This document shows positions 37,190 to 54,729 of a DNA stretch of 64,000 bases, in pieces. Location: contig CAVBST010000005.1 of the NCBI GenBank assembly GCA_963598325.1, positions 10,121-74,120 on the forward strand. Reading direction: 5' to 3'. Made by a program: the position numbers and the translations under genes. The stretch comes from an uncultured Prevotella sp. GTDB taxonomy: Bacteria > Actinomycetota > Coriobacteriia > Coriobacteriales > Eggerthellaceae. The notes under the pieces are model-generated. The model had not been told where the DNA came from, made no database searches, and saw only the letters and a program-made list of their open reading frames with translations. Each line of letters starts with the position of its first letter. Positions within the stretch are counted from its first letter, which is position 1.

Positions 37190-37462
37190 TTAGCGCAAGC
37201 TCGGATCGTCTTCGAAATTGACGTAGATAAGGTTCACGCTCAAAACCCCTGGCACATCCTGGAACTTCGCAGCTGCATCGGCCGAGGAATCCACTGTTTC
37301 CGACTCAAGGGTCACCACCAGCTTCGACTCGACAACCTCGTGCACCTCAACACCCTCCATGGTGGAAAGGGCCTGGGCAACCTTGGTCGTGGAATCGGAA
37401 ACGGTATTCACCACCAAGCTCGAGATAACCACGCTACTCACCGGCCTTTCGTTGCTGCACAT
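37190..37462 (-). CDS. napD: NapD-like Tat proofreading chaperone
   Basis: 90 aa, with the SSLVV...GVEVHEV...KLVVTLE...GVLSVNLIY pattern of NapD. The start codon is uncertain. Confidence 0.75.
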   Translation of the reverse strand: MCSNERPVSSVVISSLVVNTVSDSTTKVAQALSTMEGVEVHEVVESKLVVTLESETVDSSADAAAKFQDVPGVLSVNLIYVNFEDDPSLR

Positions 37463-37793
37463 GGCAGCTGCCGCACAGGGAATGCGCTGCGTCTATCTTG
37501 TGCGACTGCCTGTTCTCGCCCACATAATGGTTGTCGGGCATCTTACCGGCCTTTTTCAGGAACGGGTCGGCCTCGCTGCTCGAACCATGGCAGCCGTAGC
37601 AGCCTTCCGCACCCAAGCTCTCATAACGGCCCTCGTGGGCAACGGAGAGCATGGGCGCAGCGCCTTCGGGCGTATTGAAGGTCTCGGACGGCGAGGTGAT
37701 GGCGTTCGTGGAATAGCACCCGCCCAGGGCGCATGCAGAAAGCATGAGCCCCGAGACGGCTGCCACAATGACGATGTTCCGCTTCATCTTCAT
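37434..37793 (-). CDS. napB: Dihaem cytochrome c, NapB-like, predicted lipoprotein
   Basis: ATG at 37793 after AGGAGG. Signal with LSAC/LGGC lipobox. Two CXXCH motifs (CYGCH, CGSCH). Confidence 0.8.
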   Translation of the reverse strand: MKMKRNIVIVAAVSGLMLSACALGGCYSTNAITSPSETFNTPEGAAPMLSVAHEGRYESLGAEGCYGCHGSSSEADPFLKKAGKMPDNHYVGENRQSHKIDAAHSLCGSCHVQQRKAGE

Positions 37794-37805
37794 GGCTCGC
37801 ACCTC

Positions 37806-40394
37806 CTAGACCTTTTCGATGCGAACGGCGGTTTTCTTGTAGTCGGGCTCCTTCGAAAGAGGGCAATAGACCTCTTGCTGGGCAAGGTTGACCAGGGTCT
37901 CCTCGGCGAAGAACGGTATATAGCACATATGATGGGTCGGCTGCGTTCGTCCTGCACTGGAAACCGTGCACTCAAACGAGCCCCAGCGGCTGGTAACCCT
38001 CACGCGGTCGCCGTCCTTCACGCCGATCTCGTCCATGTCCTGGGCGCAAAGGTCCATCAGGGCCTCGGGCAGGGCGTTGTCGAGCTCGGGCACGCGACGC
38101 GTCATGCTGCCCGTATGCCAATGCTCCAGCAGACGGCCGGTAACCATGTAGAACGGGTACTCGCTATCGCGGATCTCGGCAGGAGGCTCATAAGGATGGA
38201 AGGTCACGCAGGGTTTGTGGTCGGCGGTCTTGTAGAACGAGATGCCATCGGTCTTGTCGGTTTCACCCCACTTCTGAACGTTCCAGGTGTCGTAGCCGTC
38301 TTCCTGCTTCCCGGCACCGTTGAAGCGCCACTTTGTGGCGTACCATTTGCCGTCGATCTGCTGGGTAGGCCACGTAAGGCCATGCTGGGTGATGTACTCG
38401 TCGTACGGCGCCAGGCGCTTGGCGGTAAGCTTGAGCGGGCTCCACCCTTCCTTCTTGTCCAGGTTGTCGTGGATGCGCAGCACGCGCTCGCTGGAATAGC
38501 TGTTCTCGGCCGGGTCGGGGTTCGAGAAGGTACGGTACTCGTTCCAGATCTCGCGGCATACATCCCGTTGATTGTCGTACTTGAAGTCGCCCGCATCCTT
38601 GTCGTACCACTTGCCGAACAGGGTATCGAAGGCGTCGTTGTCGCCGATCTTCTCGCCGTCGAGCACGCGCTTGGCGATCTCCATCAGCATCCACAGGTCC
38701 CAACGGGCGTCACCCGGAGGATCGCAGGCCTTCTCGAACACGGCCGTGCGGCGCTCGCCGTTGCCGAACATGCCCTCGCGCTCGATCCACATGGCTGCGG
38801 GAAGCACAACATCGGCGTACGCCGTGGAAAGCGTTGGGTACACCTCGGAAACCACGATGAAGGTATCGAAGATCCCCGTATGCTCGCCGTCCCTGCCAAG
38901 GAAGCGGTTGAGGTCGGTCATGGATTGGGCCCAGTTGTTGTGGGCGGTCCAGATGAAGTCCATGTTCCCGTTCGACATCTCGCGGAATATCTTGGTGGTG
39001 TGATACCCCGGAGTGGAAATGTCCTCGAGCCAGTTCTCGGGCAGATCCCAAACCGCTTCGGTGTAGCGGCGGTGCTGGGCATTGGCAACAACCAGATCGG
39101 CCGGCAAGCGATGGCTGAACGTGCCCACCTCGCGAGCGGTGCCGCACGCAGAGGGCTGGCCGGTAAGGGAGAAGGGCCCGTTGCCCGGCTTGGCGATCTT
39201 GCCGGACAGCAGATGGCAGTTGTAGAAGTTCTGGTTAACCCACGTTCCACGGTTATGCTGGTTCGCGCCCATGGTCCACAGGCTCATGATCTTGCAATTC
39301 GGATCGGCGAATGCCTCGTAGAGCAGCTGCAGGTCTTCCACGGAAACCCCGGAAAGCTGGCTTACGTACTCATAGGTGTAGGGTTCCACAAGCTTGCGGA
39401 ATTCCTCAAGGTCGATCACGGTAACCTTTTCGGCGCTCTTGCCCTTGTCCGATTTGTCGTACGAGTCGCGGTTCGCGAAATCGTTGTTGCCGATGTCTTC
39501 CTGGCCGTGCTTGAAGCACACATGGTCCTTCACGAAGTCCTTGTCGTAGGTCTCGTTTTCAAGCAGGTAGCGGCAGATGCAGTTGGTGATGGCCAGATCG
39601 GTGTTGGGTTCGAAAACCATCACCTTGTCGGCCAGCGCGCTGGTGCGATTCCTTACGGTGGTTAGGTCGTAGTGCTTCACGCCGTCTTGCTGCTTGCGCG
39701 CGGTGATGCGGCTGAACAGCATGGGATGGGCTTCGGCCATGTTGGCGCCCCAGGTAATGAACAGATCGGCATAGTCGATGTCGGCATAGCAGCCGGCAGG
39801 CTCGTCGGTGCCGAAGGTGTTCATGAACGCCACAACCGCAGATGCCATGCACAGGCGGGCATTCGGGTCGATGTTGTTGGAGCGCAGGCCCGCCTTCCAG
39901 AACTTGGACGTGGCATAGCCCTCCAAGATGGGCTGCTGCCCCGAGCCCCAGAACGCCAAGCGGCTCTTGTCCTTCTTCCAGGTTTCCCGCATCTTGCTTG
40001 CAACCAGGTCAAGCGCCTCGTCCCACTCGGCTTCGCGGTACACCTTCCGATCGTTCGACCCCTTGGTGGATTTATCCAGGCGGATAAGCGGCTTGGTAAG
40101 ACGGTCGTTGCCCTTCAGGATCTTGGCCAGGTAGTAGCCCTTCACGCAGTTCAGGCCACGGCTGGAATCGTTGTTCGGGTCGCCGGTGATGCTGATGATC
40201 TTGCCGTTCTGGCTCTCAATCAGAACGCCGCAGCCGCAGCCGCAGAAGCGGCATACGCCAACCGTGGTGGTTACGCTGTTCTTGTCGATAGACTGGTTCG
40301 CCTTGGGGGCACAGCCAGCAAGCGAACCCGAGACAGCAGCACTGGCCGCAGCGATGGCAACCAGCTTGATGAAATCTCGCCTTGAGTACTCCAT
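37806..40394 (-). CDS. napA: Periplasmic-type nitrate reductase catalytic subunit NapA (Mo-bisPGD), Tat signal plus lipobox
   Basis: MEYSRRDFIK...SLAGC. The 4Fe-4S motif CRFCGCGCG. NapA-specific blocks (RGLNCVKGYY, SNNIDPNARLCMASAV). RBS AAGGAGGAG. Confidence 0.92.
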   Translation of the reverse strand: MEYSRRDFIKLVAIAAASAAVSGSLAGCAPKANQSIDKNSVTTTVGVCRFCGCGCGVLIESQNGKIISITGDPNNDSSRGLNCVKGYYLAKILKGNDRLTKPLIRLDKSTKGSNDRKVYREAEWDEALDLVASKMRETWKKDKSRLAFWGSGQQPILEGYATSKFWKAGLRSNNIDPNARLCMASAVVAFMNTFGTDEPAGCYADIDYADLFITWGANMAEAHPMLFSRITARKQQDGVKHYDLTTVRNRTSALADKVMVFEPNTDLAITNCICRYLLENETYDKDFVKDHVCFKHGQEDIGNNDFANRDSYDKSDKGKSAEKVTVIDLEEFRKLVEPYTYEYVSQLSGVSVEDLQLLYEAFADPNCKIMSLWTMGANQHNRGTWVNQNFYNCHLLSGKIAKPGNGPFSLTGQPSACGTAREVGTFSHRLPADLVVANAQHRRYTEAVWDLPENWLEDISTPGYHTTKIFREMSNGNMDFIWTAHNNWAQSMTDLNRFLGRDGEHTGIFDTFIVVSEVYPTLSTAYADVVLPAAMWIEREGMFGNGERRTAVFEKACDPPGDARWDLWMLMEIAKRVLDGEKIGDNDAFDTLFGKWYDKDAGDFKYDNQRDVCREIWNEYRTFSNPDPAENSYSSERVLRIHDNLDKKEGWSPLKLTAKRLAPYDEYITQHGLTWPTQQIDGKWYATKWRFNGAGKQEDGYDTWNVQKWGETDKTDGISFYKTADHKPCVTFHPYEPPAEIRDSEYPFYMVTGRLLEHWHTGSMTRRVPELDNALPEALMDLCAQDMDEIGVKDGDRVRVTSRWGSFECTVSSAGRTQPTHHMCYIPFFAEETLVNLAQQEVYCPLSKEPDYKKTAVRIEKV

Positions 40395-40434
40395 GATCTC
40401 CTCCTTGAACCTCGTCGCATGCAAGCGGCGCGGG

Positions 40435-41040
40435 CTACTTCCCCTTCTTCTCTTGGGCGGCGATGCTCACAACCTTCATCGCAACCTTCGGATCGCGCAC
40501 TACGCATCTCTGAACGCATAGCCCGCATCCGGTGCATTTTTCCTTGTTCACGGTAGGGATGAACTTCGTATGGATGGAATCGTTCTCCATTGCCTGGAAC
40601 TCGATGGTGATGGCCTCGTCGATAAGCGGGCACACGCGATAGCACACTTCACAGCGCATCCCCTGATAGGCGATGCAGGTGTTCTCGTTGATCTTCGCGT
40701 ACCCCATGTTCACATCGTGCTTTTCGGACACATCGCGAAGCGCCCCTGTTGGGCACGCTGCCACACAGGGAAAATCGGCGCAAAGGCGGCAGGCGCGGTT
40801 CTCCACATCGAGCGTCGGCGTGCCGGCGGCGGCGCCCTGCGTCAAATCCGCAGGATAGATGGCCTTATGGGGGCACGCTTCGATGCATTTCCCGCATTTT
40901 ATGCAGCGGGACATGAAATCCGATTCGCCTTGGGAACCAGGCGGCCGCAAAAGGGAAGACTTGCCCGTTGCGGCAGAGTAAACCCCTTCAGCCACCACAG
41001 CAGCAGCGGCCACGCCGGCAATGACGTTGCCAAACCCCAT
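40435..41040 (-). CDS. napG: NapG-like poly-ferredoxin (4x 4Fe-4S)
   Basis: CIKCGKCIEACP, CRLCADFPCVAACP, CEVCYRVCP and CTGCGLCVQRC. Has an N-terminal hydrophobic helix but no twin-arginine motif. Confidence 0.8.
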   Translation of the reverse strand: MGFGNVIAGVAAAAVVAEGVYSAATGKSSLLRPPGSQGESDFMSRCIKCGKCIEACPHKAIYPADLTQGAAAGTPTLDVENRACRLCADFPCVAACPTGALRDVSEKHDVNMGYAKINENTCIAYQGMRCEVCYRVCPLIDEAITIEFQAMENDSIHTKFIPTVNKEKCTGCGLCVQRCVVRDPKVAMKVVSIAAQEKKGK

Positions 41041-41167: not shown

Positions 41168-41365
41168 CTACCCCAAGCGCTGCGTGCCTTCCCGCTCCTT
41201 ACGTTCCTCTTCAAGGACGTCGAGGCGGCGGGCCAAGTTGGATTGACGCCGGAACTGAACCAAAAGCCAAACCAGAAGGGCAGCAAGCACCAAGGCATAA
41301 GCCGCTATCAAGTAAGGAGCAGAGGGAATTACCGTGCTGTAGATCTCTTCTAGGATCGGGTTCAT
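41168..41365 (-). CDS. ccmD: CcmD-like small haem-export protein
   Basis: 65 aa with one TM helix (YLIAAYALVLAALLVWLLV) and a charged tail. The position directly after ccmC supports the call. Confidence 0.7.
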   Translation of the reverse strand: MNPILEEIYSTVIPSAPYLIAAYALVLAALLVWLLVQFRRQSNLARRLDVLEEERKEREGTQRLG

Positions 41366-41367
41366 GA

Positions 41368-42129
41368 TCAGGCCCTCTCTTTCTCTTCAAGAGCACAGGT
41401 GCGCTCGGCAAGGCGCGCATTGCGGAAGCATATGCGGTACATGGCAAACGCCAACGCCAGCATGCCTGCACAGCAGACAGCTACCGTAAACGCCATATCG
41501 GGAGCAAGCCCGCCCTCGCGGAACACCACCGGGTGCAGGCTAGACGGAAGGATGCGCGTAACGGCGAAGGTTATGGGAACATCGGCGAAGGCAACAAGGC
41601 CCAAAACCGCGCTGAACGCCGCACTTCGCTCCGGATCGTCAACGGCGTTGCGCAAGACGAAGTAGCCAAGGATAACCAGAACAAGCACCAAATAGGTGGT
41701 AAGGCGAGGCTCCCACGTCCACCACACGCCCCATTCGAAGCGCGTCCACATCTCGCCGGTGAACATAACTGCAAGGGCAAACACCAGCGATATCTCCATG
41801 CAGCATTTTGCGCAGGTGTCGAAACGCTGGTTGCGCGTAGCAAGGAACCGGATGCAGTAGTAGGCCATGAAGGCCAGGCCCGCCATAGAGGCAAGCGCGG
41901 CCGGCATATGGAAATAGAAGATCTTCTGCGAAAGCAGCAGCTTCGAGGAAACCATGCTGCCGCCTATGAGCTCGGCCCCATCTACGCGGGCACCGCTCAC
42001 CGGCGAGGCGTACAAAAACGCCAGCAAGAACCCGCCTAAAAGCCCTATCGCAGCAACTGCGAGGGCAAGCGGAACCAGCTTGTCGGGCCACTGGCCGATC
42101 TCAGGCAAGGGCCTTTTTCTTTTGCTCAA
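41368..42129 (-). CDS. ccmC: Haem exporter / haem-handling protein CcmC
   Basis: WWD motif WGVWWTWEPRLT. TTG start at 42129 after AAGGAGG. The track ORF is over-extended into ccmB. Confidence 0.88.
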   Translation of the reverse strand: MSKRKRPLPEIGQWPDKLVPLALAVAAIGLLGGFLLAFLYASPVSGARVDGAELIGGSMVSSKLLLSQKIFYFHMPAALASMAGLAFMAYYCIRFLATRNQRFDTCAKCCMEISLVFALAVMFTGEMWTRFEWGVWWTWEPRLTTYLVLVLVILGYFVLRNAVDDPERSAAFSAVLGLVAFADVPITFAVTRILPSSLHPVVFREGGLAPDMAFTVAVCCAGMLALAFAMYRICFRNARLAERTCALEEKERA

Positions 42130-42139
42130 AACAGCCTCC

Positions 42140-42862
42140 TTACGCTGAGACCACGAAATCGTAGAGCACCCATGAGAGCAGCCCCATAACCACATCGTAC
42201 ACACCGATGATCGCCACCGAGGGGACGAAGACAGAAGAAAAGCCATCGCCCCCAACAAGGCACGCCGAAGTGGCGCATACGCAAGCGTAGAGCAGGGGGA
42301 ACAGCAGAGGAACGGCGAGCACTGCCAACATGACGTCCCGCCCGCGCGTGCTTGTTGTGACGGTTGCCAGCAAGGTGCCAACCGCAGCCATCCCCAACGT
42401 GCCCAAGGCCAAAGGAGCCAGGGCAAATTGCACGGTTTCGCCAAGCTGCTGGCCCTCCAGGAAGAAGAAGACGAACACCGGCGTCACTAGCAGTTCGACT
42501 ATTGCCAAGAACAGGAAGTTCGATGTTGCCTTCGCCAAGAACACCACAGACCGGTCGATGGGGGCGATAAGGATGGCATCGAGGCAATCGTTTTCCCTCT
42601 CGTAGGCAAACGACCTGTTCAACCCAATAAGGGAGGTAAACACGATGAGCACCCAAAGAAGCCCAGAGGCCACGCCGCGGACGTCTTCGCCCAAAGAAAC
42701 CTGCGAAAGGGCAACTCCGTAGACGATCAGGACCAGCACCGCATACAGCACCATGGAGCTGAGCATGTCGAACGTGTGGAACTCGCGCTCTACGTCCTTG
42801 CGAAGAAGGGCGCGGTATTGGGAGAGCATCGAAGGCGATCCGCCTGTGCGAGCACCCATCAC
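42140..42862 (-). CDS. ccmB: Haem exporter membrane protein CcmB
   Basis: Six-TM CcmB-like protein. The start overlaps the ccmA stop. Confidence 0.85.
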   Translation of the reverse strand: MMGARTGGSPSMLSQYRALLRKDVEREFHTFDMLSSMVLYAVLVLIVYGVALSQVSLGEDVRGVASGLLWVLIVFTSLIGLNRSFAYERENDCLDAILIAPIDRSVVFLAKATSNFLFLAIVELLVTPVFVFFFLEGQQLGETVQFALAPLALGTLGMAAVGTLLATVTTSTRGRDVMLAVLAVPLLFPLLYACVCATSACLVGGDGFSSVFVPSVAIIGVYDVVMGLLSWVLYDFVVSA

Positions 42863-43572
42863 GCACCTCTCCTTCCAACGGATTCGCGATAGACCTGCTC
42901 GAAGCTGCGGCCCGCCATTTCATCGCGGCCGCAGAAGAGCTTCACCTTCCCCTTTGCCAAAACAAGCAAGTGGGTGCAGAGTCCATACCCCTTCGCAAGG
43001 TCGTGGCTCACCATCACGATGGTGCGCCCCTTGCGCTCCCGTGCCAAGATACCGTCCAGATCATCGGCGGCGTAAGGGTCAAGGCCGGAATACGGCTCGT
43101 CGAGCAAGAGGATCGCCGGATCGTTGACCAAGGCGCGTGCGATTGAGAGGCGCTGGGTCATCCCACGCGAATAGGATGAAACCACATCGAAGCGGCGATG
43201 GTAGAGTCCCACATCCCTGAGCAGCTTTTCCGCGCGGACATCTGCATCCCCCACCCCGTAAAGCCGTGCGAAGAGCTTCAGGTTCTCGTAAGCCGTAAGC
43301 TCGGGGTACAGAAGCGGGCTGTGAGACACGAGCCCGATAAGCGCCCTTACCTGCTCGGGGCGCTCGAGCGCATCTACCCCTTGCAACGCAACCTTGCCTT
43401 CGGTTGGCCGGGCAAGGGTGGCCATCAGACGAAGAAGCGTGGTCTTCCCTGCGCCATTGGGGCCGAAAACGCAGACGAAGGCCCCTTCGGGCACCGACAG
43501 GCTGACATCGGCCAGGGCCGAACGGGTGCCGAAGCGCTTCGACACTCCCTGCAATTCCAGGGCAACTCCCAT
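42859..43572 (-). CDS. ccmA: Haem exporter ATP-binding protein CcmA
   Basis: Walker A GPNGAGKT, ABC signature YSRGMTQRLS, Walker B LLLDEP. Confidence 0.88.
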   Translation of the reverse strand: MGVALELQGVSKRFGTRSALADVSLSVPEGAFVCVFGPNGAGKTTLLRLMATLARPTEGKVALQGVDALERPEQVRALIGLVSHSPLLYPELTAYENLKLFARLYGVGDADVRAEKLLRDVGLYHRRFDVVSSYSRGMTQRLSIARALVNDPAILLLDEPYSGLDPYAADDLDGILARERKGRTIVMVSHDLAKGYGLCTHLLVLAKGKVKLFCGRDEMAGRSFEQVYRESVGRRGA

Positions 43573-43573
43573 A

Positions 43574-45685
43574 TCAAGCAGCCTCCTTGGCTCGAGCCGG
43601 CCCGCGCTTCAGCTTCCCTACGAAAGCCAAAGCCATTCCGCAGCTCAACAGGGCAAAGCCAGCCCAAACCACGCTGATAAGGGGGTTGATCCGCACGTCC
43701 AGGGAAAGGTAACCCGTTTTGGCGTTCACGCCCTTGTACACCACAAACAAGTCCTCGGTCGGGAACCCGAGCACGCTTGCATTGAGCTTCTGCTGCTGGG
43801 TGCTTGCCACCAGCTGGACAGACGGGCTTGCCGTTCCAACCTGACTGCCATCATGCAAGACGTTGAAGTCTACCTGGTACATAACGTCCGAGCTTTCCAG
43901 CTGGGTTACCGACTGGCCCTGGTAGGCGAGCTCGTAGCCGCCGATGCTGAATGTTCCGTTAGCGGAATCGGTCGCAGAATCATATTCCAAATACCCCGCA
44001 TTCTCGGTTACGTACATCGAGGAGCCGATAAGGCCCACGAGCATAAGCCCCATTGCCGCATGGCACAAAAACCCACCTATGGGGGCCGCGGTTGCCGCAT
44101 GGCTTTTTATGGAGCGGCCGATCATGCAAACCGCATTCGCCATAAGCACGCTGGCCACGGCAAACCCCACAACTGCCAAGCCGTTGTAGTACCACGATGG
44201 CCCCATTTCCAGCAGCGCTTCGGCATTGCTCCCGCCGGCAGCCACCGTTGCATCATACGCAGGCAGAAGAACCTGAGCGAAGTACAGCATCAGCACCGCG
44301 AAAACCACCGCAGCAACAGCTGCAGGCAGCCGCAGCTTGCGCAGGAGCTTCTTCTTGTCGGTCTTCGCCCATCCAAGCATCGGGCCTATCGCGATAAGCA
44401 GCAAGTACCCTATGCCCAACGGCCGGGCTATCGCATTGAAGGTTCCCGTGCTCACCGATTGCCCGCCGAACGGCAAGAACGCCGGAAGCGCCGAGGATAT
44501 TGTCATATAGCAGAGCAAGCATGAGGCCAGCAGCACGAAAACGCAGTTGATGTAGAACGCAACGTCTTTGGTGAGCATGCTTTCCGCATCCGCCCGCTCT
44601 TTTGGTGCGAAGGTTTTGCGGCGCAAAGCCAAGCCGATAGCCGCCGAGCCGACGGAAAGCACCATAAGCACAAGGAAGAACACCAGCGAAACCGCATCAC
44701 CCTCGAAGGCATGTACCGACTGCACCAAGCCGGAGCGGCTGATGAATGTTCCCACGATAACGAAGCAGAACGTCAAAGCGGCGCACATGATGGCCCAACC
44801 CTTGAACATGCCGCGCTGCCGGTACACCGTGAAGCTATGCACAAGGGCGATGCACATGAGCCAGGGCAGCAGGCTTGCGTTCTCGACAGGGTCCCAGCCC
44901 CAGTAGCCGCCCCACCCCAGGCAAACATAGGCCCATACGGCGCCAAGGCCGATACCGATCGTCAGGAACAGCCACGCGAATTGGGCATACGGAGAGCAGC
45001 GCTTCACCCATTGCTCGCTGGCATCGTTGCATACGAGGGCCGCGATGGCGTAAGCGAAAGGAACAGTAAGGCCGGCATAGCCCAAAAACAACGTGGGGGG
45101 ATGCACCGCCATTGCCCAGTGTTCAAGCAGGGAGTTCATCCCCAAAACGCTGCCGGCCGAAGTAACCTGCATAGTTGCGTAGTCGAAGTACTTCTCGTCG
45201 GTGGCCGTGAAGGGCATATTGTCTTCGCTGAACAGCAGCACCCCAACGAAGAGCGCCAGCACAAAGGCCATCACCATCAACGCAACGCTGTCCAGGCGCT
45301 TAGGGCTGTTTGCCTCTTTGCGGGAAACCAGCACGGCGAACATCCCGATAAGCCATGCCCAAAATAGCAGCGATCCTTCGCGGCCAGACCATAAACCACT
45401 AAGTCGGTACATCCAGCTCAGGCTGCTGGTGTTGTCTGAGCGGTTGTCCAGCACGTATTGAATCGTGCAATCGCCCGCCATGAACGCGAAAACCAGCACG
45501 GCGCACGATACGGTAAGCCCTGCAAAGCAGACGATGCTTGCCGTGCGCCCCGCCCAATCCAGGGCTTCCGCTGTGTCGGCGTTGCCCTTCGCGGCCATTC
45601 TTGCGCCGAATCCAAGGCATACCACGCAAAGCACGCAGCCGAAGAACGCCAAAAGCAACCCGACAAGCCCAATCAAGGAAAGCAT
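43574..45685 (-). CDS. ccmF: Cytochrome c haem lyase / haem-handling protein CcmF
   Basis: 703 aa, multi-TM, with the WWD motif WGGYWGWDPVENASLLPW. Confidence 0.92.
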   Translation of the reverse strand: MLSLIGLVGLLLAFFGCVLCVVCLGFGARMAAKGNADTAEALDWAGRTASIVCFAGLTVSCAVLVFAFMAGDCTIQYVLDNRSDNTSSLSWMYRLSGLWSGREGSLLFWAWLIGMFAVLVSRKEANSPKRLDSVALMVMAFVLALFVGVLLFSEDNMPFTATDEKYFDYATMQVTSAGSVLGMNSLLEHWAMAVHPPTLFLGYAGLTVPFAYAIAALVCNDASEQWVKRCSPYAQFAWLFLTIGIGLGAVWAYVCLGWGGYWGWDPVENASLLPWLMCIALVHSFTVYRQRGMFKGWAIMCAALTFCFVIVGTFISRSGLVQSVHAFEGDAVSLVFFLVLMVLSVGSAAIGLALRRKTFAPKERADAESMLTKDVAFYINCVFVLLASCLLCYMTISSALPAFLPFGGQSVSTGTFNAIARPLGIGYLLLIAIGPMLGWAKTDKKKLLRKLRLPAAVAAVVFAVLMLYFAQVLLPAYDATVAAGGSNAEALLEMGPSWYYNGLAVVGFAVASVLMANAVCMIGRSIKSHAATAAPIGGFLCHAAMGLMLVGLIGSSMYVTENAGYLEYDSATDSANGTFSIGGYELAYQGQSVTQLESSDVMYQVDFNVLHDGSQVGTASPSVQLVASTQQQKLNASVLGFPTEDLFVVYKGVNAKTGYLSLDVRINPLISVVWAGFALLSCGMALAFVGKLKRGPARAKEAA

Positions 45686-45686
45686 A

Positions 45687-46382
45687 CTATTCCCTCACCG
45701 CCACGCTTGTTGCGTTGAACACGCCGTTGCCGTCTAAGGCTCCCTGAATAACCAATTTGGTACTCGGGGTATCCTGGCCTTGCGAAATGGCGCCTTCGTA
45801 GTGAACGGGAACATGAACATCAGCCTCGGCTGCGTCATTCAACGTGAACCGTATCGGCTCTTCTACGGTGCCGATACCCGAATCGGCAAGAACGCCTTCG
45901 AGCTTTACCGTCTTGCCGATCATCGACTCCCCATATCCCAGCAAGGCGGATACCGAAAGGGCATCGGAAGCATTTTCATATTTCGATGGGCACTTGGTAA
46001 CCAATTCCGTGGCAACTAAGGTTCCGTCATCCGAGATTCTGCCAGTGCATATTGCCGAAATGCCATTGCCGAACGTTGATGAAACGCCCTTATCGTAGGA
46101 AACGCGAACGGTCGGGGCCTTTCCGGAAGCCGCATCAGCAGATGCCGCGCCCTCGTCGCACAACGAGAAGGTCAAAACCCCTTGTTCATCAATTTCGTAC
46201 GAGTTGTCAACAACCGTTCCCGATACCTCTACCTTCTGGCCGGCAAAGCCCCCTTCGGCGCAGTCGGCCACCGAAACCGCTTTGGCCGCAGTGCTTCCCC
46301 CGATCACGGCAAACGCTATCAAGACGGCGATGACGATCAAGCCCGCAACAACCACAAGACGGCGTTTCATCTTTGCGTTCAT
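45687..46382 (-). CDS. ccmE: Haem chaperone CcmE variant: TM anchor, an OB domain ending in CPSKY (CxxxY), and a second CcmE-like OB domain
   Basis: Aligns to CcmE (GQKVEVSGTVV..LTFSL.D..VRVSYDKG..ICTGRISDDGTLVATELVTKCPSKYE). Residues ~141-231 repeat the same pattern without a haem-binding motif. Confidence 0.8.
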   Translation of the reverse strand: MNAKMKRRLVVVAGLIVIAVLIAFAVIGGSTAAKAVSVADCAEGGFAGQKVEVSGTVVDNSYEIDEQGVLTFSLCDEGAASADAASGKAPTVRVSYDKGVSSTFGNGISAICTGRISDDGTLVATELVTKCPSKYENASDALSVSALLGYGESMIGKTVKLEGVLADSGIGTVEEPIRFTLNDAAEADVHVPVHYEGAISQGQDTPSTKLVIQGALDGNGVFNATSVAVRE

Positions 46383-46484
46383 AGTTCCAATCTCCTACAC
46401 AATACGAGCCCCCAACAAGGTCTATGCCAGTTAGGGGCCCGCACCAGAGCTTCAACTCATCTTATCCCGAATCAGAGACCCAGC

Positions 46485-47237
46485 TTACTGTTTCTCGTTG
46501 TCATACGATCCGTAAATGGTACCCAACTCGGAGGCTTCCTGTGCAGAAAGCCATCCGTCGGGGATATCTGCATACGAATCATCGTGGCAGGACGTGCAGA
46601 CAAGAACCGATGCTCTATGGGACTTATGGCAATCAGTGCAGGTGTACTGGAAATGATGCCAAGAATGGGGGTTTCGGGTTAGGTTCGAGGTTGCCTGAGT
46701 CAGATCCGACTTACTCATGTTGTGGCAGCTCTCGTTCAGGCAGAATTCGGTGTTGTCGTCGTAGTTCTCGTACGCAGTTAGGTTGTCCAGATTTCTCTCG
46801 CTCAATGGAGCCGTGTATCTGCCGGTCATGAAGTTAACGCCCTCGGTGGCCTGCTCTTTAAGCGTAGGTTTGTGGCAGTCCAAGCACGTCACATCACCGT
46901 AGGCCCTATGAGTGGCAGCCATCATGGCGCTGGCGTCTTTAACCTCGTTGCCCCATTTGTCTACCGATGCCTTACCGGGCTCAGATTCGTAGGTAGGAAC
47001 ATAGCCATCCATCGAGGCATGGCAGATTGCGCCGCAGAAACTCGGGGATTCGTGCCAAACCATCATTCCCGCGCCAGCAGCAACGAATACCACCAAGCAG
47101 ACCGAAAGGGTGATGTGCCACCTCTTGAAACGGCCGACCTTCTTCTGGCCCCATGAATGAAGTTTCCCGGGCTTCTTCTCCTCTTGAGCCGGAGAATCGC
47201 TGGAGACGACCTCTTCAGATTGCTTTTCGTCATCCAT
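46485..47237 (-). CDS. Membrane-anchored multihaem cytochrome c (NapC/NrfH-like position and topology)
   Basis: One N-terminal TM helix. Haem motifs CGAICH (CX3CH), CLDCH, CLNESCH (CX4CH), CTDCH and [16 protein letters not shown]. Confidence 0.8.
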   Translation of the reverse strand: MDDEKQSEEVVSSDSPAQEEKKPGKLHSWGQKKVGRFKRWHITLSVCLVVFVAAGAGMMVWHESPSFCGAICHASMDGYVPTYESEPGKASVDKWGNEVKDASAMMAATHRAYGDVTCLDCHKPTLKEQATEGVNFMTGRYTAPLSERNLDNLTAYENYDDNTEFCLNESCHNMSKSDLTQATSNLTRNPHSWHHFQYTCTDCHKSHRASVLVCTSCHDDSYADIPDGWLSAQEASELGTIYGSYDNEKQ

Positions 47238-47978: not shown

Positions 47979-48407
47979 TTATACGTACTGGTCTTCCTTT
48001 TCCTTGGCAGCAAGCTGAACCTTACACCAGCGCAGCTTACGCGTCAGAAGCGAACGGGAGATGATGCTTTCCTCAGGGAGGTTGGCCAACTTCTCCTCGA
48101 TCTCGGGGATAGCCTTGTTGAGCTTATCAACGTTGATGCGCTTGATCTGGCGCGTCTTGTCGCAAGTAACGATGACGCGGTCCTTCAGCACCTGGACATA
48201 ACCACCCATGATGGCAGCGGAAAGCGTTTCGCCACCATCCTGCTGGGTGCGAGCCCAGATGACGCCGTCGCGAAGGGCGCATACGAAGGGCTCATGGTTC
48301 TCCATGATGCCCAACTCGCCTTCCGTGCCCGGCACCATGACGTTATAAAGCTCGCCAGAGAAGAGAACTTTGTCCTTTGCTACAACGTCACACCTGATCA
48401 CCGACAT
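47979..48407 (-). CDS. atpC: F1 ATP synthase epsilon subunit
   Basis: Family similarity, and last position in the atp operon. Confidence 0.9.
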   Translation of the reverse strand: MSVIRCDVVAKDKVLFSGELYNVMVPGTEGELGIMENHEPFVCALRDGVIWARTQQDGGETLSAAIMGGYVQVLKDRVIVTCDKTRQIKRINVDKLNKAIPEIEEKLANLPEESIISRSLLTRKLRWCKVQLAAKEKEDQYV

Positions 48408-48410
48408 GGC

Positions 48411-49856
<1,446 letters not shown>

Positions 49857-50777
49857 TTAGTCCTCCAAAGCTGCGGCGCCGCCGACGATCTCGTTGATCT
49901 CGGTCGTGATGGCGCCTTGACGTACACGGTTGTAGACACGGTTGAGGGTTTCAATCATGTCGTTGGCATTGTCCGTCGCGTTCTTCATTGCGTTGCGACG
50001 AGCAGCCTGCTCGGCTGCTGCCGAGTCGATGAGCATGTAGAAGTAATGACCCGCCACATACTCGGGAAGAAAGTGATCCAGAACCTCGGTCTCGTTGGGC
50101 TCGTACTCGATGGCACCGGAAATCTCCAGGTCATCGGGCGTTGCCTCAGTGATACCGCCGCCCTTGCTGAAAACCTCGCCCTTGGGAAGGAAGGCCTTCG
50201 GGTCTACGGGCAGAAGCGGCTGCTGGATCAGAACCTGCTCACCAGCGTTCTTCGCGTGGTTGTAAAGCACAACCACCTCGTCGATGTCGCCGTTGAGGTA
50301 ATGCTCGATCGAGTAATCGGCCAGGGCATTGGATTCCTCAACACGCGGGTCGGCAGACAGGTCGCGGAAAGCCAGAACGGTATCGATCTTGCGGTACTTG
50401 AAGTAGCTGATGGCCTTCTTGCCGCAAGCAGCAACGATAACTTCCTGACCCTTTTCCTTACGTTCCTTCATGATCTTCTCAGCACGACGGAGCACGCTGG
50501 AGTTGAAGCCGCCAGCAAGACCACGGTCGGATGCGACGACGACGAGAAGAACCTTCTTCACCTCGTCATGCGGCGTGGTCAGCGGAACATGGGTACCGCC
50601 CATGCGCGCGATGTTGGCAAGCATCTCCTTAACAGCCTCACCATAGGGCGTAGCTGCCTCGACACGCTGGGTGCTGTGTCGGATCTTGGCAGCTGCAACC
50701 ATTTCCATGGTGTGCGTGATCTGCTTCGTCGACTCGACGGACTTGATTCGCCTTTCGATATCGTGAAGGTTCGGCAT
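49857..50777 (-). CDS. atpG: F1 ATP synthase gamma subunit
   Basis: IKSVESTKQITHTMEMVAAAK N-terminus and ITTEINEIVGGA C-terminus. Confidence 0.95.
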   Translation of the reverse strand: MPNLHDIERRIKSVESTKQITHTMEMVAAAKIRHSTQRVEAATPYGEAVKEMLANIARMGGTHVPLTTPHDEVKKVLLVVVASDRGLAGGFNSSVLRRAEKIMKERKEKGQEVIVAACGKKAISYFKYRKIDTVLAFRDLSADPRVEESNALADYSIEHYLNGDIDEVVVLYNHAKNAGEQVLIQQPLLPVDPKAFLPKGEVFSKGGGITEATPDDLEISGAIEYEPNETEVLDHFLPEYVAGHYFYMLIDSAAAEQAARRNAMKNATDNANDMIETLNRVYNRVRQGAITTEINEIVGGAAALED

Positions 50778-50788
50778 ACTTACCTACC

Positions 50789-52354
50789 TTACGCGATGAA
50801 CTGGAGCTTGAACTGCTCGATGAGCGTGCTCAGCTCGGATTCGACATCGTCGGTGAACTTCTTTGCGTCTGCGAGCTTGTCCATTACGCCGTTGCCGGAG
50901 TGATGCAGGTAGTCGAGCATCTCGCTGCGGAAGCGAACAACGCTCTTAGCCGGAACATCATCCAGGTAGCCATGGGCACCAGCCCAGATGGCGGTTGCCA
51001 TGTCCTCGACGGACATAGGAGCGTAACGACCCTGCTTCAGGATCTCGGTCATGACAGCGCCACGGGTGAGCTGCTGCTGGGTTGCCTTGTCCAGGTCGGA
51101 ACCGAACTGGGTGAAGGCTGCGAGCTCGCGGTAGGCTGCCAGGTCGAGGCGGAGCGTACCGGCTACGGACTTCATGGACTTCACCTGAGCGGAGCCGCCA
51201 ACGCGGGATACGGAGATACCAACGTTGACTGCAGGGCGCTGACCCTGATAGAAGAGGTCGGTGGTGAGGTAGATCTGACCGTCGGTAATGGAGATAACGT
51301 TGGTAGGAATGAACGCACCAACGTCGCCAGCCTGGGTCTCGATGATCGGCAGAGCCGTCATGGAACCTGCACCGTTCTCGTCGGAGAGCTTACATGCGCG
51401 CTCCAGCAAGCGGGAATGCAGGTAGAAGATGTCGCCCGGGTAAGCCTCGCGTCCGGGAGGACGATGCAGGGTCAGGGACATCTGACGGTAGGCAACAGCC
51501 TGCTTGGACAGGTCGTCGTATACCGCAAGGACGTGACCGCCAGGGTTCTCGGCGTTGGCGGGCTTGCCGTCTTCGCCGTTGAACATGAAGTACTCGCCCA
51601 TTGCAGCGCCGACCATAGGAGCCATGTACTGCAGCGGAGCAGGATCGGAAGCCGTAGCGGCAACAACAATGGTGTAGTCCATCGCGCCGAAACGCTCGAG
51701 GGTTTCAACGATGCCGGAAACGGTAGAAGCCTTCTGGCCGATTGCGACGTAGACGCAGACCATGCCCTTGCCCTTTTGGTTGATAATGGCATCAACGGCA
51801 ATAGAGGTCTTACCGGTCTGACGGTCGCCGATGATCAGCTCACGCTGACCACGGCCGATCGGGATCATCGAGTCGATAGCGAGGATACCGGTCTGCATAG
51901 GCTCCTCGACGGGCTGACGCTCGTGAACGCCAGGTGCCTTGAACTCAACGGGGCGGAACGCGTCCGTCTCGATGGGGCCCTTGCCGTCGATAGGCTGGCC
52001 GAGCACGTTAACAACGCGGCCGAGCATTGCCTTGCCAACAGGTACTTCCAGAATCTTGCCAGTGGTACGTACCTGGTCGTTCTCCTTGATTGCAGTGATG
52101 TCACCAAGGAGTACGGCGCCGACTTCCTCTTCCTCGAGGTTCTGCACCAAACCGGAAACGATACGTCCGTCGGAAGCGATGAACTCAAGGAGCTCACCGG
52201 ACATCGCACCCTTAAGGCCGTCGATACGGGCAATACCGTCGCCGATCTGCACAACCGTGCCGGTCTCGCGAGACTCTACGGACGTGTTGATGGCGTCGAG
52301 CTGCTTGCGCAGTGCCGCGTCGATAGACTGTGCGGTGATTTCAGTCACTAGCAT
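50789..52354 (-). CDS. atpA: F1 ATP synthase alpha subunit
   Basis: GDRQTGKT Walker A, and conserved alpha-subunit sequence. Confidence 0.97.
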
Positions 52355-52920
52355 TCACCTCCATCTTTCTTCTTAAGAGCGATACGAGCCTTGTCGAATT
52401 GGGAGCGAACGCTCGCATCGACGTATCGGCTGCCACAGCTCATGATAATGCCGCCCTGGATGGAAGGGTCGATGTGCTCTACGAGCACGCAGTCGCGACC
52501 CAGGTCGGAAACGGCTTTTTCGGTAATTACGGTTCGCAGGTTGTCATCAAGTTCAACAACCGTCGTCACATCAACAACGTTGAAGTTAAGCTTTTCCACG
52601 ATCTGCTCTTCATAGCGAGCGACCACGCGACGGAACAGGTTCGCGTCGCAACGGGAAGCCATAACCTCAAGAAGCTCAACGACCACCGGGTGATAGCCAT
52701 CGAATACGTTGCCGGCAAGCGCGCTGCGCTGCTCGGCCGTGTAAGCCTCGTTGTCCAACGAGAGACGTAGATCGATATTGGTTGCCATGTACCCGAGGAT
52801 CTGCTGCATCTGGTTGCGAACCTCGACGACAGCGTCACGACCGCCGGTGGCGTTTGCGCCATCGATGGCGGCGTTGGCGTAGGCTGCAATCGTTTCATTG
52901 ATGACAAGACGATTAGCCAT
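52348..52920 (-). CDS. atpH: F1 ATP synthase delta subunit (OSCP)
   Basis: Operon position and an OSCP-like C-terminus ([18 protein letters not shown]). Confidence 0.88.
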
Positions 52921-53509
52921 TTAGACTACCTGCCTCTTTCACGTAGCGCTCGATGAGCTTACGATGCTCGTCGTCGCTGAAATCCTCGCCAATCAGGCGA
53001 GAAGCAACTGCGATAGAAGTGTCGGCCATGGAAGCCTGAAGCTCCTTGATGGCGTTTTCCTTCTCCTGCTCGATGGCTGCGCGGGCCTTGTCGATGATCG
53101 CATCCGCCTCTGCCTGGGCCTTTGCGGTGATCTCCTTCTCAAGAGCGTCACCGGAAAGCTTGGCATTGTTGAGGATCTGCTGAGCCTGGGCCTTTGCGCC
53201 CTCGAGCTGCTCACGGTACTCAGCCAGCAGTCGTTCGCTTTCCTGTCGTGCCTCCTCGGACTTCTCCAGGGAGTTCTTAATGGTTTCCTCACGCTTGTTC
53301 AGCATGCCCTCGAACAGGGGCCAACCGAACTTGGCAAGGACGATCCACAAGATGATGAAGGCGACGAGCATGGGAATGAATTCTTCCATCTGAGGAAGAA
53401 TAGCGCTGATGCCAGCGCTCTCGTCAGCGAACGCGCATACCGGGAATGCCGCAGAAGCTGCAGCAAAGGCGATCATGCCACTTGCACAGTTACGTACGTG
53501 TGCGTTCAA
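52913..53509 (-). CDS. atpF: Fo ATP synthase b subunit (with about 35 extra N-terminal residues if the start at 53509 is used)
   Basis: EFIPMLVAFIILWIVLAKFGWP followed by a long charged helix. The start is uncertain. Confidence 0.88.
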   Translation of the reverse strand: MNAHVRNCASGMIAFAAASAAFPVCAFADESAGISAILPQMEEFIPMLVAFIILWIVLAKFGWPLFEGMLNKREETIKNSLEKSEEARQESERLLAEYREQLEGAKAQAQQILNNAKLSGDALEKEITAKAQAEADAIIDKARAAIEQEKENAIKELQASMADTSIAVASRLIGEDFSDDEHRKLIERYVKEAGSLNG

Positions 53510-53568
53510 TTCGCGTGCCTCCTTCTCTTCTTTCGGTTTCTTCGTTAGTTACTTGGTTTCGCGAAGTT

Positions 53569-53787
53569 CTAACCGATGAAGAAAAGAACCAGGCCGAGCA
53601 GTGCAAGTGCCTCAGACATTGCAGCGCCGATGAAGAAGTAGCCCATGAGCTGACCCTTCATCTCAGGCTGACGAGCAGCGGACACGCACAGGCCGTAGGT
53701 AGCAACGCCGATACCGATGCCAGGGCCGATTGCTGCGAGGCCATAGCCAACGACCTTCAACGCAGCGATTGCGAGAGTGAGTTCCAC
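53569..53787 (-). CDS. atpE: Fo ATP synthase c subunit
   Basis: 72-aa hairpin proteolipid with GPGIGIG and a conserved carboxylate (AMSEALAL). Confidence 0.93.
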   Translation of the reverse strand: MELTLAIAALKVVGYGLAAIGPGIGIGVATYGLCVSAARQPEMKGQLMGYFFIGAAMSEALALLGLVLFFIG

Positions 53788-53940
53788 GATTACCTCCTTT
53801 AGTTGGACAAGGGCCTTTCCCTCGTCCTAGTTACTAAGTTCAGCTGAAGTTTTCCGTACCAGCTGTAGTACCAAAGTGTTTCGGCGGCCGCCGGGCCGCC
53901 AGCGCAAGAAGCGCGGATCCGATTTCTTCCTACCCCTGCA

Positions 53941-54729
53941 TCAGTGAGGATGGATGGCCATGCCGATGTAAGAGGAAGAAAGAATGGTGAACACGTATGC
54001 CTGCAAGAACGCAACCAGCGTTTCGAGGGCGTACATGAAGAACAGCAGGAAGAACCATGCGATGGCAGGCAGGCCTGCAACGATGTCCATCTGGAAGATG
54101 GCGGTCTGCAGGAAGATGGTGGTTGCCAGGGAGAACACGGCAAGAACCATATGGCCGGCCAGCATGTTGCCGTAAAGTCGAACGGCGAGCGTAAGAACGC
54201 GGATGACCATGGAGAAGAACTCCAGGAACCAGATTACCGGGGCAATGGGGCCGGGCACGCCAGAGGGGCACAGCGCCTTGAAGTAATGGAAGAAGCCGAG
54301 CTCCTTCAAACCCCAGAAGTTGAAGTAAACGAACGAGATAACGGCGAGCGCCCACGTGATGGAGATGGTGCCCATTGCCGCCTTAGCACCCGGGATAAGG
54401 CCGATGATGTTGGCGGTAAGGATGAAGAAGAACAGCGTTGCCAGGAAGGGAACGTGCTTCTTGAAGCCTTCGCCGATAACGTCGGCGCCGACGCTTTCGG
54501 AAATGAAGTTGTAGCCGTACTCGAAGATGTGCGGGAACTTGCTGTGAGGCACAAGCGTGAGCTTGCGGCCGGCGATAAGAACAAGAGCCGCTACCAGGAC
54601 GAGCGCAATCGCCATGTACAGGACGTACTGGGATACATGCCAACCCGCGATGGAAAAGACCGTTGCCGAGTCGAACTGCGACGAGAGATGCTGCGCCTCC
54701 TCGACGAACTGTGAAAGTGCTTCACCCAT
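53941..54729 (-). CDS. atpB: Fo ATP synthase a subunit
   Basis: Conserved R in LAVRLYGNMLAGH. Confidence 0.93.
   Translation of the reverse strand: MGEALSQFVEEAQHLSSQFDSATVFSIAGWHVSQYVLYMAIALVLVAALVLIAGRKLTLVPHSKFPHIFEYGYNFISESVGADVIGEGFKKHVPFLATLFFFILTANIIGLIPGAKAAMGTISITWALAVISFVYFNFWGLKELGFFHYFKALCPSGVPGPIAPVIWFLEFFSMVIRVLTLAVRLYGNMLAGHMVLAVFSLATTIFLQTAIFQMDIVAGLPAIAWFFLLFFMYALETLVAFLQAYVFTILSSSYIGMAIHPH

Follow-up and report, generated by a model that had tools for sequence, protein, structure and literature searches.

The gene described here, ccmE, lies on the minus strand (as do all window features given below) of a 64,000-nucleotide (nt) stretch of contig CAVBST010000005.1, which we call the window. 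It occupies 45687..46382 and encodes a predicted two-domain, cysteine-type haem chaperone of the cytochrome c maturation (Ccm) system, 231 amino acids (aa) plus the stop codon. The start codon is ATG, a ribosome-binding site (AGGAG, 46392..46396) is found 10 nt 5' of it, and a single nt separates the stop codon from the ATG of ccmF. The initial annotation of this sequence had recognised a CcmE-family domain with a cysteine in place of the haem-binding histidine, followed by a tandem second CcmE-type OB (oligonucleotide/oligosaccharide-binding) fold that lacks an H/CxxxY motif, an arrangement that would put the cysteine in an inter-domain linker. It had proposed a profile search and a structure prediction as checks. 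The results below bear out each of these points.

Two CcmE profile matches are present in the one polypeptide. The whole protein scores 83 bits against the Pfam CcmE family (PF03100), in two stretches. We also scanned each half separately against the same profile, which has a gathering cut-off of 24.6 bits. Residues 1-135 alone score 50.7 bits, with a match that spans residues 45-135. Residues 136-231 alone reach 33.7 bits, the match here covering positions 6-91 of the 99 in the profile, so that both halves are above the cut-off on their own. BLASTP of one half against the other detected no similarity. However, comparison of the halves as profiles with hhalign gave a probability of 97% (E 5.7e-11) with 22 sequences, and an E value of 7.7e-17 with 246 sequences. 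The two copies thus appear to have diverged beyond the reach of BLASTP, with a kinship that is visible to profile methods only.

The N-terminal part of the protein has the features expected of a CcmE. There is one predicted membrane anchor, a helix at residues 3-31 in the AlphaFold2 secondary structure (46290..46376) that follows the basic NAKMKRR, and the remainder of the protein is predicted to be extracytoplasmic. K6 and R8 in the basic N-terminus are invariant in the alignment of relatives. Domain 1, a CcmE OB barrel, comprises residues 46-130 (45993..46247), as judged by the Pfam match, the predicted strands and conservation. It holds a T-F-G motif and the invariant F104, which aligns column for column with F103 of Escherichia coli CcmE in the stretch VSYEGILPDLFREG. 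We take E. coli F103 to be one of the hydrophobic haem-platform residues of that protein. The segment TKCPSKY directly follows the last strand of barrel 1, and 45978..45992 translates to CPSKY, with Cys131 as the predicted haem-attachment residue and Tyr135 as the presumed axial ligand. An H/CxxxY motif right after the final barrel strand is found in domain 1 only. CPSKY, in which cysteine replaces the haem-binding histidine, is the majority motif among the CcmE proteins of 'System I*' (PMC3601427).

In an alignment of 149 sequences, G55, V57, S61, F72, F104, G114, T129, C131, P132, K134, Y135 and G214 are invariant. One two-domain relative outside this pattern, P0133, reads TKCPEKQ and is without the otherwise invariant tyrosine. 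We considered Cys112 as a possible partner of Cys131 and rejected it. It is confined to the Eggerthellaceae clade of relatives (63 of the 149 sequences). Other sequences have Val, Leu or Ile there, as would fit a site in the buried core.

The motif is followed by a linker and then by the second barrel. The linker (residues 136-155; 45918..45977) consists of a segment predicted with low confidence and a short helical part at 144-154, and its residues A141 and L147 are nearly invariant. Domain 2 (residues 156-231; 45690..45917) is a second, degenerate CcmE-type OB barrel without an attachment motif. In addition to the invariant G214, it has nearly invariant residues at G163, R178, A224 and V227. 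Its signature, G-A-L-P-x-G-[MVI]-x-D-G, parallels the canonical G-x-L-P-D-x-F-x-E-G, and the column equivalent to the platform Phe is Met, Val or Ile in 123 of the 149 sequences. The protein ends (FNATSVAVRE, then the stop) precisely at the point where a second motif would start.

Structure prediction gave two confident five-stranded barrels. We ran AlphaFold2 on the full-length protein with an alignment of 22 sequences (mean predicted local distance difference test score, pLDDT, 85.7), and on the protein without its membrane helix with 149 sequences (mean pLDDT 92.1). The strands of barrel 1 are at 50-57, 70-75, 91-96, 109-116 and 122-130, and those of barrel 2 at 158-165, 179-182, 190-195, 209-216 and 222-229, with the short helices at 144-154 ahead of barrel 2. 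Cys131 is the first residue past the last strand of barrel 1 and hence the start of the linker. The pLDDT of the linker is below 50 at residues 133-138 in the 22-sequence model and about 76 in the 149-sequence model. The models suggest two well-defined barrels joined by a flexible junction, with a mutual orientation that is not confidently fixed, because the predicted template modelling score (pTM) is only 0.59 despite the pLDDT of 92.1 and a linker at about 76. In a Foldseek search of the Protein Data Bank, CcmE structures ranked top (8ce8_E, 1j6q, 1sr3 and 2kct), followed by generic and tandem OB proteins. By sequence, the same solved CcmE chains align better to domain 2 than to domain 1; for example, 2kct scores 37 bits at profile positions 149-216.

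The two-domain layout is widespread. A protein search returned 1094 relatives, of which the best 120 are 212-261 aa long; 118 of these cover at least 98% of the query, and the other two cover 87%. Names among these 120 include Berryella, Adlercreutzia, Raoultibacter, Gordonibacter and metagenome-assembled genomes (MAGs) of Coriobacteriia. When a single genome was scanned for each species, relatives turned up in at least 478 species genomes. Both domains are covered in every one of the best 80 matches (76 from residue 1 and four from residues 27-31, ending at about 230). Nearly all of these 80 are from Eggerthellaceae, among them Slackia, Rubneribacter, Ellagibacter, Senegalimassilia and Curtanaerobium. 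Domain 2 used by itself as the query led to a second, more distant clade of two-domain CcmE proteins, at about 30-40% identity. This clade has about 100 members, with names that include Anaerosomatales, 'Actinobacteria bacterium' and Coriobacteriia MAGs, and one member (L083) is on a 2.5-Mb contig. Eggerthellales and Anaerosomatales are distinct orders within the class Coriobacteriia.

The attachment motif and the long C-terminal extension occur together in both clades. In the first-clade set, the motif is CPSKY in 119 of 120 sequences and CPIKY in one, and all 120 have at least 80 residues past it. In the set from the second search, 111 of 117 have CPSKY; 98 of these 111 have at least 80 residues past the motif, and 12 are short single-domain forms. 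Altogether, 218 of the 237 collected relatives have at least 80 residues past the motif. The tandem layout is the norm in two deep clades of Coriobacteriia, the Eggerthellaceae and an Anaerosomatales-like clade. A tandem CcmE is thus not rare, since hundreds of gut and environmental Coriobacteriia have it and it is the usual CcmE of this class. No truncated two-domain forms were found among the complete genes in these two clades and hundreds of species.

We also searched 1.84 billion representative sequences with phmmer, using domain 2 alone. Most of the 38 matches are two-domain CcmE proteins or shorter proteins with the same domain, and four are long and unrelated-looking. There was no ordinary single-domain CcmE among the 38, which argues that domain 2 is a distinct subtype, and this search revealed neither tandem forms outside the Coriobacteriia nor an outside donor. 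Three metagenomic proteins have a domain-2 sequence joined to unrelated N-termini: an XRE-type helix-turn-helix (P0127), an unknown region (P0123), and a membrane helix with a repeat-like domain where domain 1 would be (P0150). These could be chimeric assemblies or real domain shuffling. Four contigs that carry a two-domain ccmE of the Eggerthellaceae type, with further ccm genes after it in the same order, are labelled as other organisms, namely Christensenellaceae (L001), a Methanomethylophilaceae archaeon (L017), Eubacteriales (L066) and Bacteroidaceae (L074). These contigs are probably mis-binned.

Several observations bear on where domain 2 came from. The single-domain CPSKY relatives (128-146 aa; P0273-P0283) align along domain 1 and the KCPSKY segment and end 5-15 residues later. 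Because these relatives align to domain 1 and stop just past the motif, domain 2 is an ancient C-terminal add-on. When the domain 2 of one clade is compared with that of the other, the scores are 78-93 bits, whereas domain 2 scores 39-50 bits against any domain 1 or single-domain CcmE. The higher scores between clades indicate that domain 2 was gained once, before the two clades split. Domain 2 is roughly equidistant from domain 1 (39-50 bits) and from single-domain CcmE proteins (47-49 bits). Profile scores are 165 for domain 1 against single-domain forms, 121 for domain 2 against single-domain forms, and 93, the weakest, for domain 1 against domain 2. An old internal duplication and the fusion of a second ccmE copy could each have produced it.

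Domain 2 is clearly under purifying selection. We compared the window gene with the ccmE of L001 (81% aa identity), a pair in which the synonymous divergence dS exceeds 1 so that the values are rough, and obtained ratios of nonsynonymous to synonymous substitution rates (dN/dS) of 0.06 for domain 1, 0.025 for the motif plus linker and 0.11 for domain 2. Amino acid identity in the same comparison is 86% in domain 1 and 72% in domain 2. Overall conservation of the two domains is close, with a column entropy of 1.60 for domain 1 and 1.87 for domain 2. The two halves of the gene are equal in GC content and in GC content at third codon positions (GC3).

The gene is encoded together with ccmABCD and ccmF. 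Downstream of ccmE are ccmF (43574..45685; 703 aa, Pfam Cytochrom_C_asm plus CcmF_C, with the WWD motif WGGYWGWDP), ccmA for the ATP-binding cassette (ABC) ATPase (42859..43572; Pfam and conserved neighbourhood), ccmB (42140..42862; Pfam CcmB, 82 bits) and ccmC (41368..42129; 253 aa, WWD motif WGVWWTWEP). For ccmC, the likely start is a TTG at 42129 that follows AAGGAGG; the mechanically called open reading frame (ORF), 41368-42444, is too long and shares about 300 nt with ccmB. Last is a ccmD-like gene for a small membrane protein of 65 aa (41168..41365), which scores 19.6 bits against Pfam CcmD, where the cut-off is 25.6; CcmD is a component that System I* (see below) retains in its bacterial form. 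The adjacency of ccmE and ccmF is kept in 78 of 80 related loci, the order ccmE-F-A-B-C-D in most of the 80 and also in the second clade (L083), and the ccmD-like ORF is at the same position in most of the loci that reach that far. In L083 (15461-20570), an additional gene of the Cytochrom_C_asm family (286 aa) comes next after ccmD, ahead of hemA, hemC and hemD of haem biosynthesis. No CcmH- or CcmG-like gene was found in the operon or among the Pfam-labelled neighbours in L081 and L083, nor did scanning the window crudely for motifs reveal a thioredoxin-like ORF with W/F-CxxC.

The genes on either side point to the likely clients. Upstream (5') of ccmE is a gene for a membrane-anchored, c3-like multihaem cytochrome (46485..47237; Pfam Cytochrom_c3_2) with five candidate haem motifs: CXXCH at 118, 200 and 214, and the non-standard CX3CH at 68 and CX4CH at 166. 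Many of the 80 loci have such a cytochrome gene 5' of ccmE, and the window cytochrome is likely a client of the Ccm system. Past ccmD, at 37434-41040, are genes for a 4Fe-4S (FeS) protein, for a molybdopterin oxidoreductase of 872 aa with a twin-arginine (TAT) signal, and for a small dihaem cytochrome that resembles a lipoprotein. Since these genes follow ccmD on the same strand, the ccm operon sits within a respiratory reductase module. Upstream of the cytochrome and ccm block, at 47979-54729, is an F-type ATP synthase cluster (epsilon, beta, gamma, alpha and further subunits).

The layout of the reductase genes in the window is matched in L001 and L003, and in other loci the FeS and Mo genes are upstream of ccmE. 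Between L001 (15345-18575) and the window (37806-41040), the FeS proteins are 99% identical and the Mo-oxidoreductases 97%, whereas identity between the adjacent Ccm proteins is only 81-90%. Such unequal divergence suggests that the reductase genes were recently exchanged.

Based on these results, we think it quite probable that the window CcmE works as the haem chaperone in a ccmEFABCD operon of the System I* kind known from Desulfovibrio and archaea (the variant Ccm system of Allen 2006 and Stevens 2011), in an Eggerthellaceae-like member of the Coriobacteriia. By homology with Desulfovibrio desulfuricans and Methanosarcina acetivorans, CcmC (with CcmD) would present haem at its WWD site, Cys131 (the counterpart of Cys127 and Cys120, respectively) would bond covalently to a haem vinyl, and Tyr135 would ligate the iron. 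Holo-CcmE would then be released by CcmAB, and CcmF would pass the haem on to CXXCH motifs in client proteins, for instance the c3-like and dihaem cytochromes encoded nearby. These cytochromes may in turn serve the adjacent molybdopterin reductase. Because CPSKY falls between domain 1 and domain 2, the predicted attachment site is an internal loop between two domains instead of a free C-terminal tail.

Published work on related systems bears on this reading. The System I* variant is on record for deltaproteobacteria, Chloroflexi, Firmicutes and archaea, often without CcmH (PMC3601427). The D. desulfuricans operon yields holocytochromes in E. coli, and its Cys-type CcmE binds haem covalently (PMC3601427). 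Haem binding is lost in the C120A and C120H variants of M. acetivorans CcmE, and the C127H variant of D. desulfuricans CcmE binds no haem (PMC9084895). In E. coli holo-CcmE, Tyr134 ligates the iron (PMC3884852).

For domain 2, we tentatively suggest a role as a cap: it might fold back on the exposed face of the Cys-bound haem and cover it during transit from CcmC to CcmF. The hydrophobic Met, Val or Ile at the platform-Phe position in most copies of domain 2 is a point for this role. We further speculate, on what we consider to be an unlikely extension of the same idea, that both barrels could clamp the haem bound at Cys131 like a clamshell, forming a self-capping chaperone that originated once in an ancestor of the Coriobacteriia. 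If so, CcmC and CcmF would each take up the attachment loop in their WWD sites in the form of an internal hairpin, with no free tail. Such a chaperone might perhaps have evolved as an adaptation in cells that lack an outer membrane enclosing a periplasm and mature their cytochromes c on the external side of the membrane.

Several points weigh against the reading given above or limit it. Covalent binding of haem at Cys131 is a conclusion that we infer by homology, and the type of bond in Cys-type CcmE proteins is debated, because CcmE of Desulfovibrio vulgaris was reported to bind ferric haem non-covalently via Cys127 (PMC3884852). The protein scores far under the cut-offs of all NCBIfam CcmE equivalog models (PRK13254 and related; best 40.1 bits against a cut-off of 126), which indicates that it is atypical and outside the curated canonical models. 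The evidence for domain 2 as a cap is thin. The packing of domain 1 on domain 2 is not confidently fixed by AlphaFold (pTM 0.48 and 0.59), the window protein has an Asp at the platform-equivalent position of domain 2, within a lineage-specific loop (SQGQDTPS), and a conserved His, Met, Cys or Tyr that could act as an axial ligand is absent from domain 2 in the 149 sequences across both clades.

Other roles for domain 2 are conceivable, and much of the same evidence bears on them. It could serve in docking or handover, by binding CcmC or CcmF on their extracytoplasmic side or by binding the unfolded apocytochrome, and so partly replace the CcmH/CcmI functions that the operon lacks, with domain 1 carrying the haem. 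OB folds commonly bind peptides and oligomers, a flexible linker would suit a two-handed mechanism, domain 2 has no conserved haem-ligand residue, and the searches of the operon, the window and the L081 and L083 neighbours found nothing like CcmH or CcmG. Yet the conserved residues of domain 2 are mostly structural glycines plus R178, and the D. desulfuricans system functions in E. coli without CcmH or CcmG on a single-domain CcmE, so that a replacement is not strictly needed (PMC3601427). We find a docking role rather doubtful, although it ranks next after capping. A little less likely in our judgement is that domain 2 is a largely passive spacer or stabiliser, acting in folding or in reach across the envelope with no direct part in haem chemistry. 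Its weaker constraint relative to domain 1 (in both dN/dS and identity), the preponderance of glycines among its invariant positions and the lack of a predicted fixed interface would fit a spacer, but domain 2 has stayed at full length in hundreds of species from both deep clades, truncations being absent from the complete genes, and its column conservation is near that of domain 1.

It is very unlikely that domain 2 is a second, non-covalent haem site, a relay or reservoir that would give two haems per protein. Domain 2 does retain the barrel signature and, in most members, a hydrophobic residue at the platform position, and the solved CcmE chains fit it even better than they fit domain 1. 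However, H/CxxxY is missing from it, none of the residues His, Met, Cys and Tyr is conserved in it, and the platform Phe has not been preserved (Asp in the window protein). A review describes the barrels of apo-CcmE as having no haem pocket that can be recognised (PMC3884852). Finally, the initial annotation had named two ways in which its reading could fail: an unrelated C-terminal half, or two genes fused by a frameshift or assembly error. The only point for such an artefact is the blindness of BLASTP to the similarity between the halves. The same continuous ORF recurs across independent assemblies, with at least 478 species genomes and over 200 non-redundant proteins that have it, the C-terminal half alone is above the Pfam CcmE cut-off, GC and GC3 are equal in the halves, and domain 2 is under purifying selection. 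The score of the C-terminal half and the recurrence in hundreds of genomes refute an artefact, to which we give practically no credence. The reading that we prefer is still that of a working System I* chaperone, with capping as a tentative role for domain 2.

The layout matters for models of haem delivery. In models of System I that are based on E. coli, the haem-binding residue is at the start of a free, flexible C-terminal tail, whereas the tandem family places it between two folded domains, an arrangement that is stable across a whole bacterial class. General models of how CcmE offers haem to CcmC and CcmF must accommodate inter-domain attachment. Tandem CcmE is also a clean shared derived character that links the Eggerthellales with Anaerosomatales-like lineages. 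There may be practical consequences as well. The Eggerthellaceae are gut bacteria, and drugs and dietary compounds are among the substrates of their respiratory reductases and multihaem cytochromes. Efforts to produce the Eggerthella lenta cytochrome Cgr1 in foreign hosts were unsuccessful, and a mismatch of cytochrome c maturation factors was the cause that the authors suspected (PMC5953540). Co-expression of the native ccmEFABCD, including the two-domain CcmE, may matter for making Eggerthellaceae cytochromes.

The initial annotation knew of no duplicated two-domain CcmE, and our literature search likewise found no description of one, or of a Ccm system of Coriobacteriia or Actinobacteria, in the searchable literature, with most subscription journals outside its reach. 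The CcmE papers that we checked there treat the protein as a single barrel with a tail. Databases list hundreds of the two-domain sequences as 'CcmE' or 'CcmE domain-containing protein'.

Among characterised proteins, CcmE of D. desulfuricans and D. vulgaris (System I*; 2KCT) resembles the window protein in its N-terminal anchor, its OB barrel and its cysteine in place of histidine. The chain of 2KCT ends in LMTKCPL and shares TKCP with the window CcmE. Neither operon carries ccmH or ccmG; Desulfovibrio has a CcmD, and the window has the ccmD-like gene with its sub-threshold Pfam score. The Desulfovibrio gene order is presumably ccmEFABCD, as in the window. However, the Desulfovibrio CcmE has a single domain and ends soon past the motif, whereas the window CcmE continues for about 95 residues more. 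The hosts differ too, Desulfovibrio being a deltaproteobacterium and the window host a Gram-positive-type actinobacterium. Similarly, M. acetivorans has a Cys-type CxxxY motif in which Cys120 is required, and a streamlined Ccm system without CcmH/I (PMC9084895). In contrast to the window, with its ccmD-like gene and tandem barrel, the archaeal systems are without CcmD and the M. acetivorans CcmE has a single domain. CcmE of E. coli and Shewanella (1SR3, 1J6Q, 8CE8 chain E) shares the fold, the anchor and a Tyr four residues past the attachment residue, as well as, for E. coli, the platform Phe F103 aligned with F104. It differs in that it uses a histidine (His130) on a free, flexible C-terminal tail and works with CcmG/H.

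The closest single-domain relatives of the window CcmE are the CPSKY proteins P0273-P0283, which share KCPSKY with it. The single-stranded DNA-binding proteins of Thermus and Deinococcus (2FXQ, 1SE8) also have two OB folds per chain, and about 226-239 columns were aligned in the fold search. They bind DNA, are unrelated by sequence and superpose poorly (root-mean-square deviation 18-19 Å), so that the likeness is an architectural analogy only. Set beside these systems, the window CcmE is of the System I* type and its domain layout is new, an ancient and class-wide architectural variation of a well-understood chaperone.

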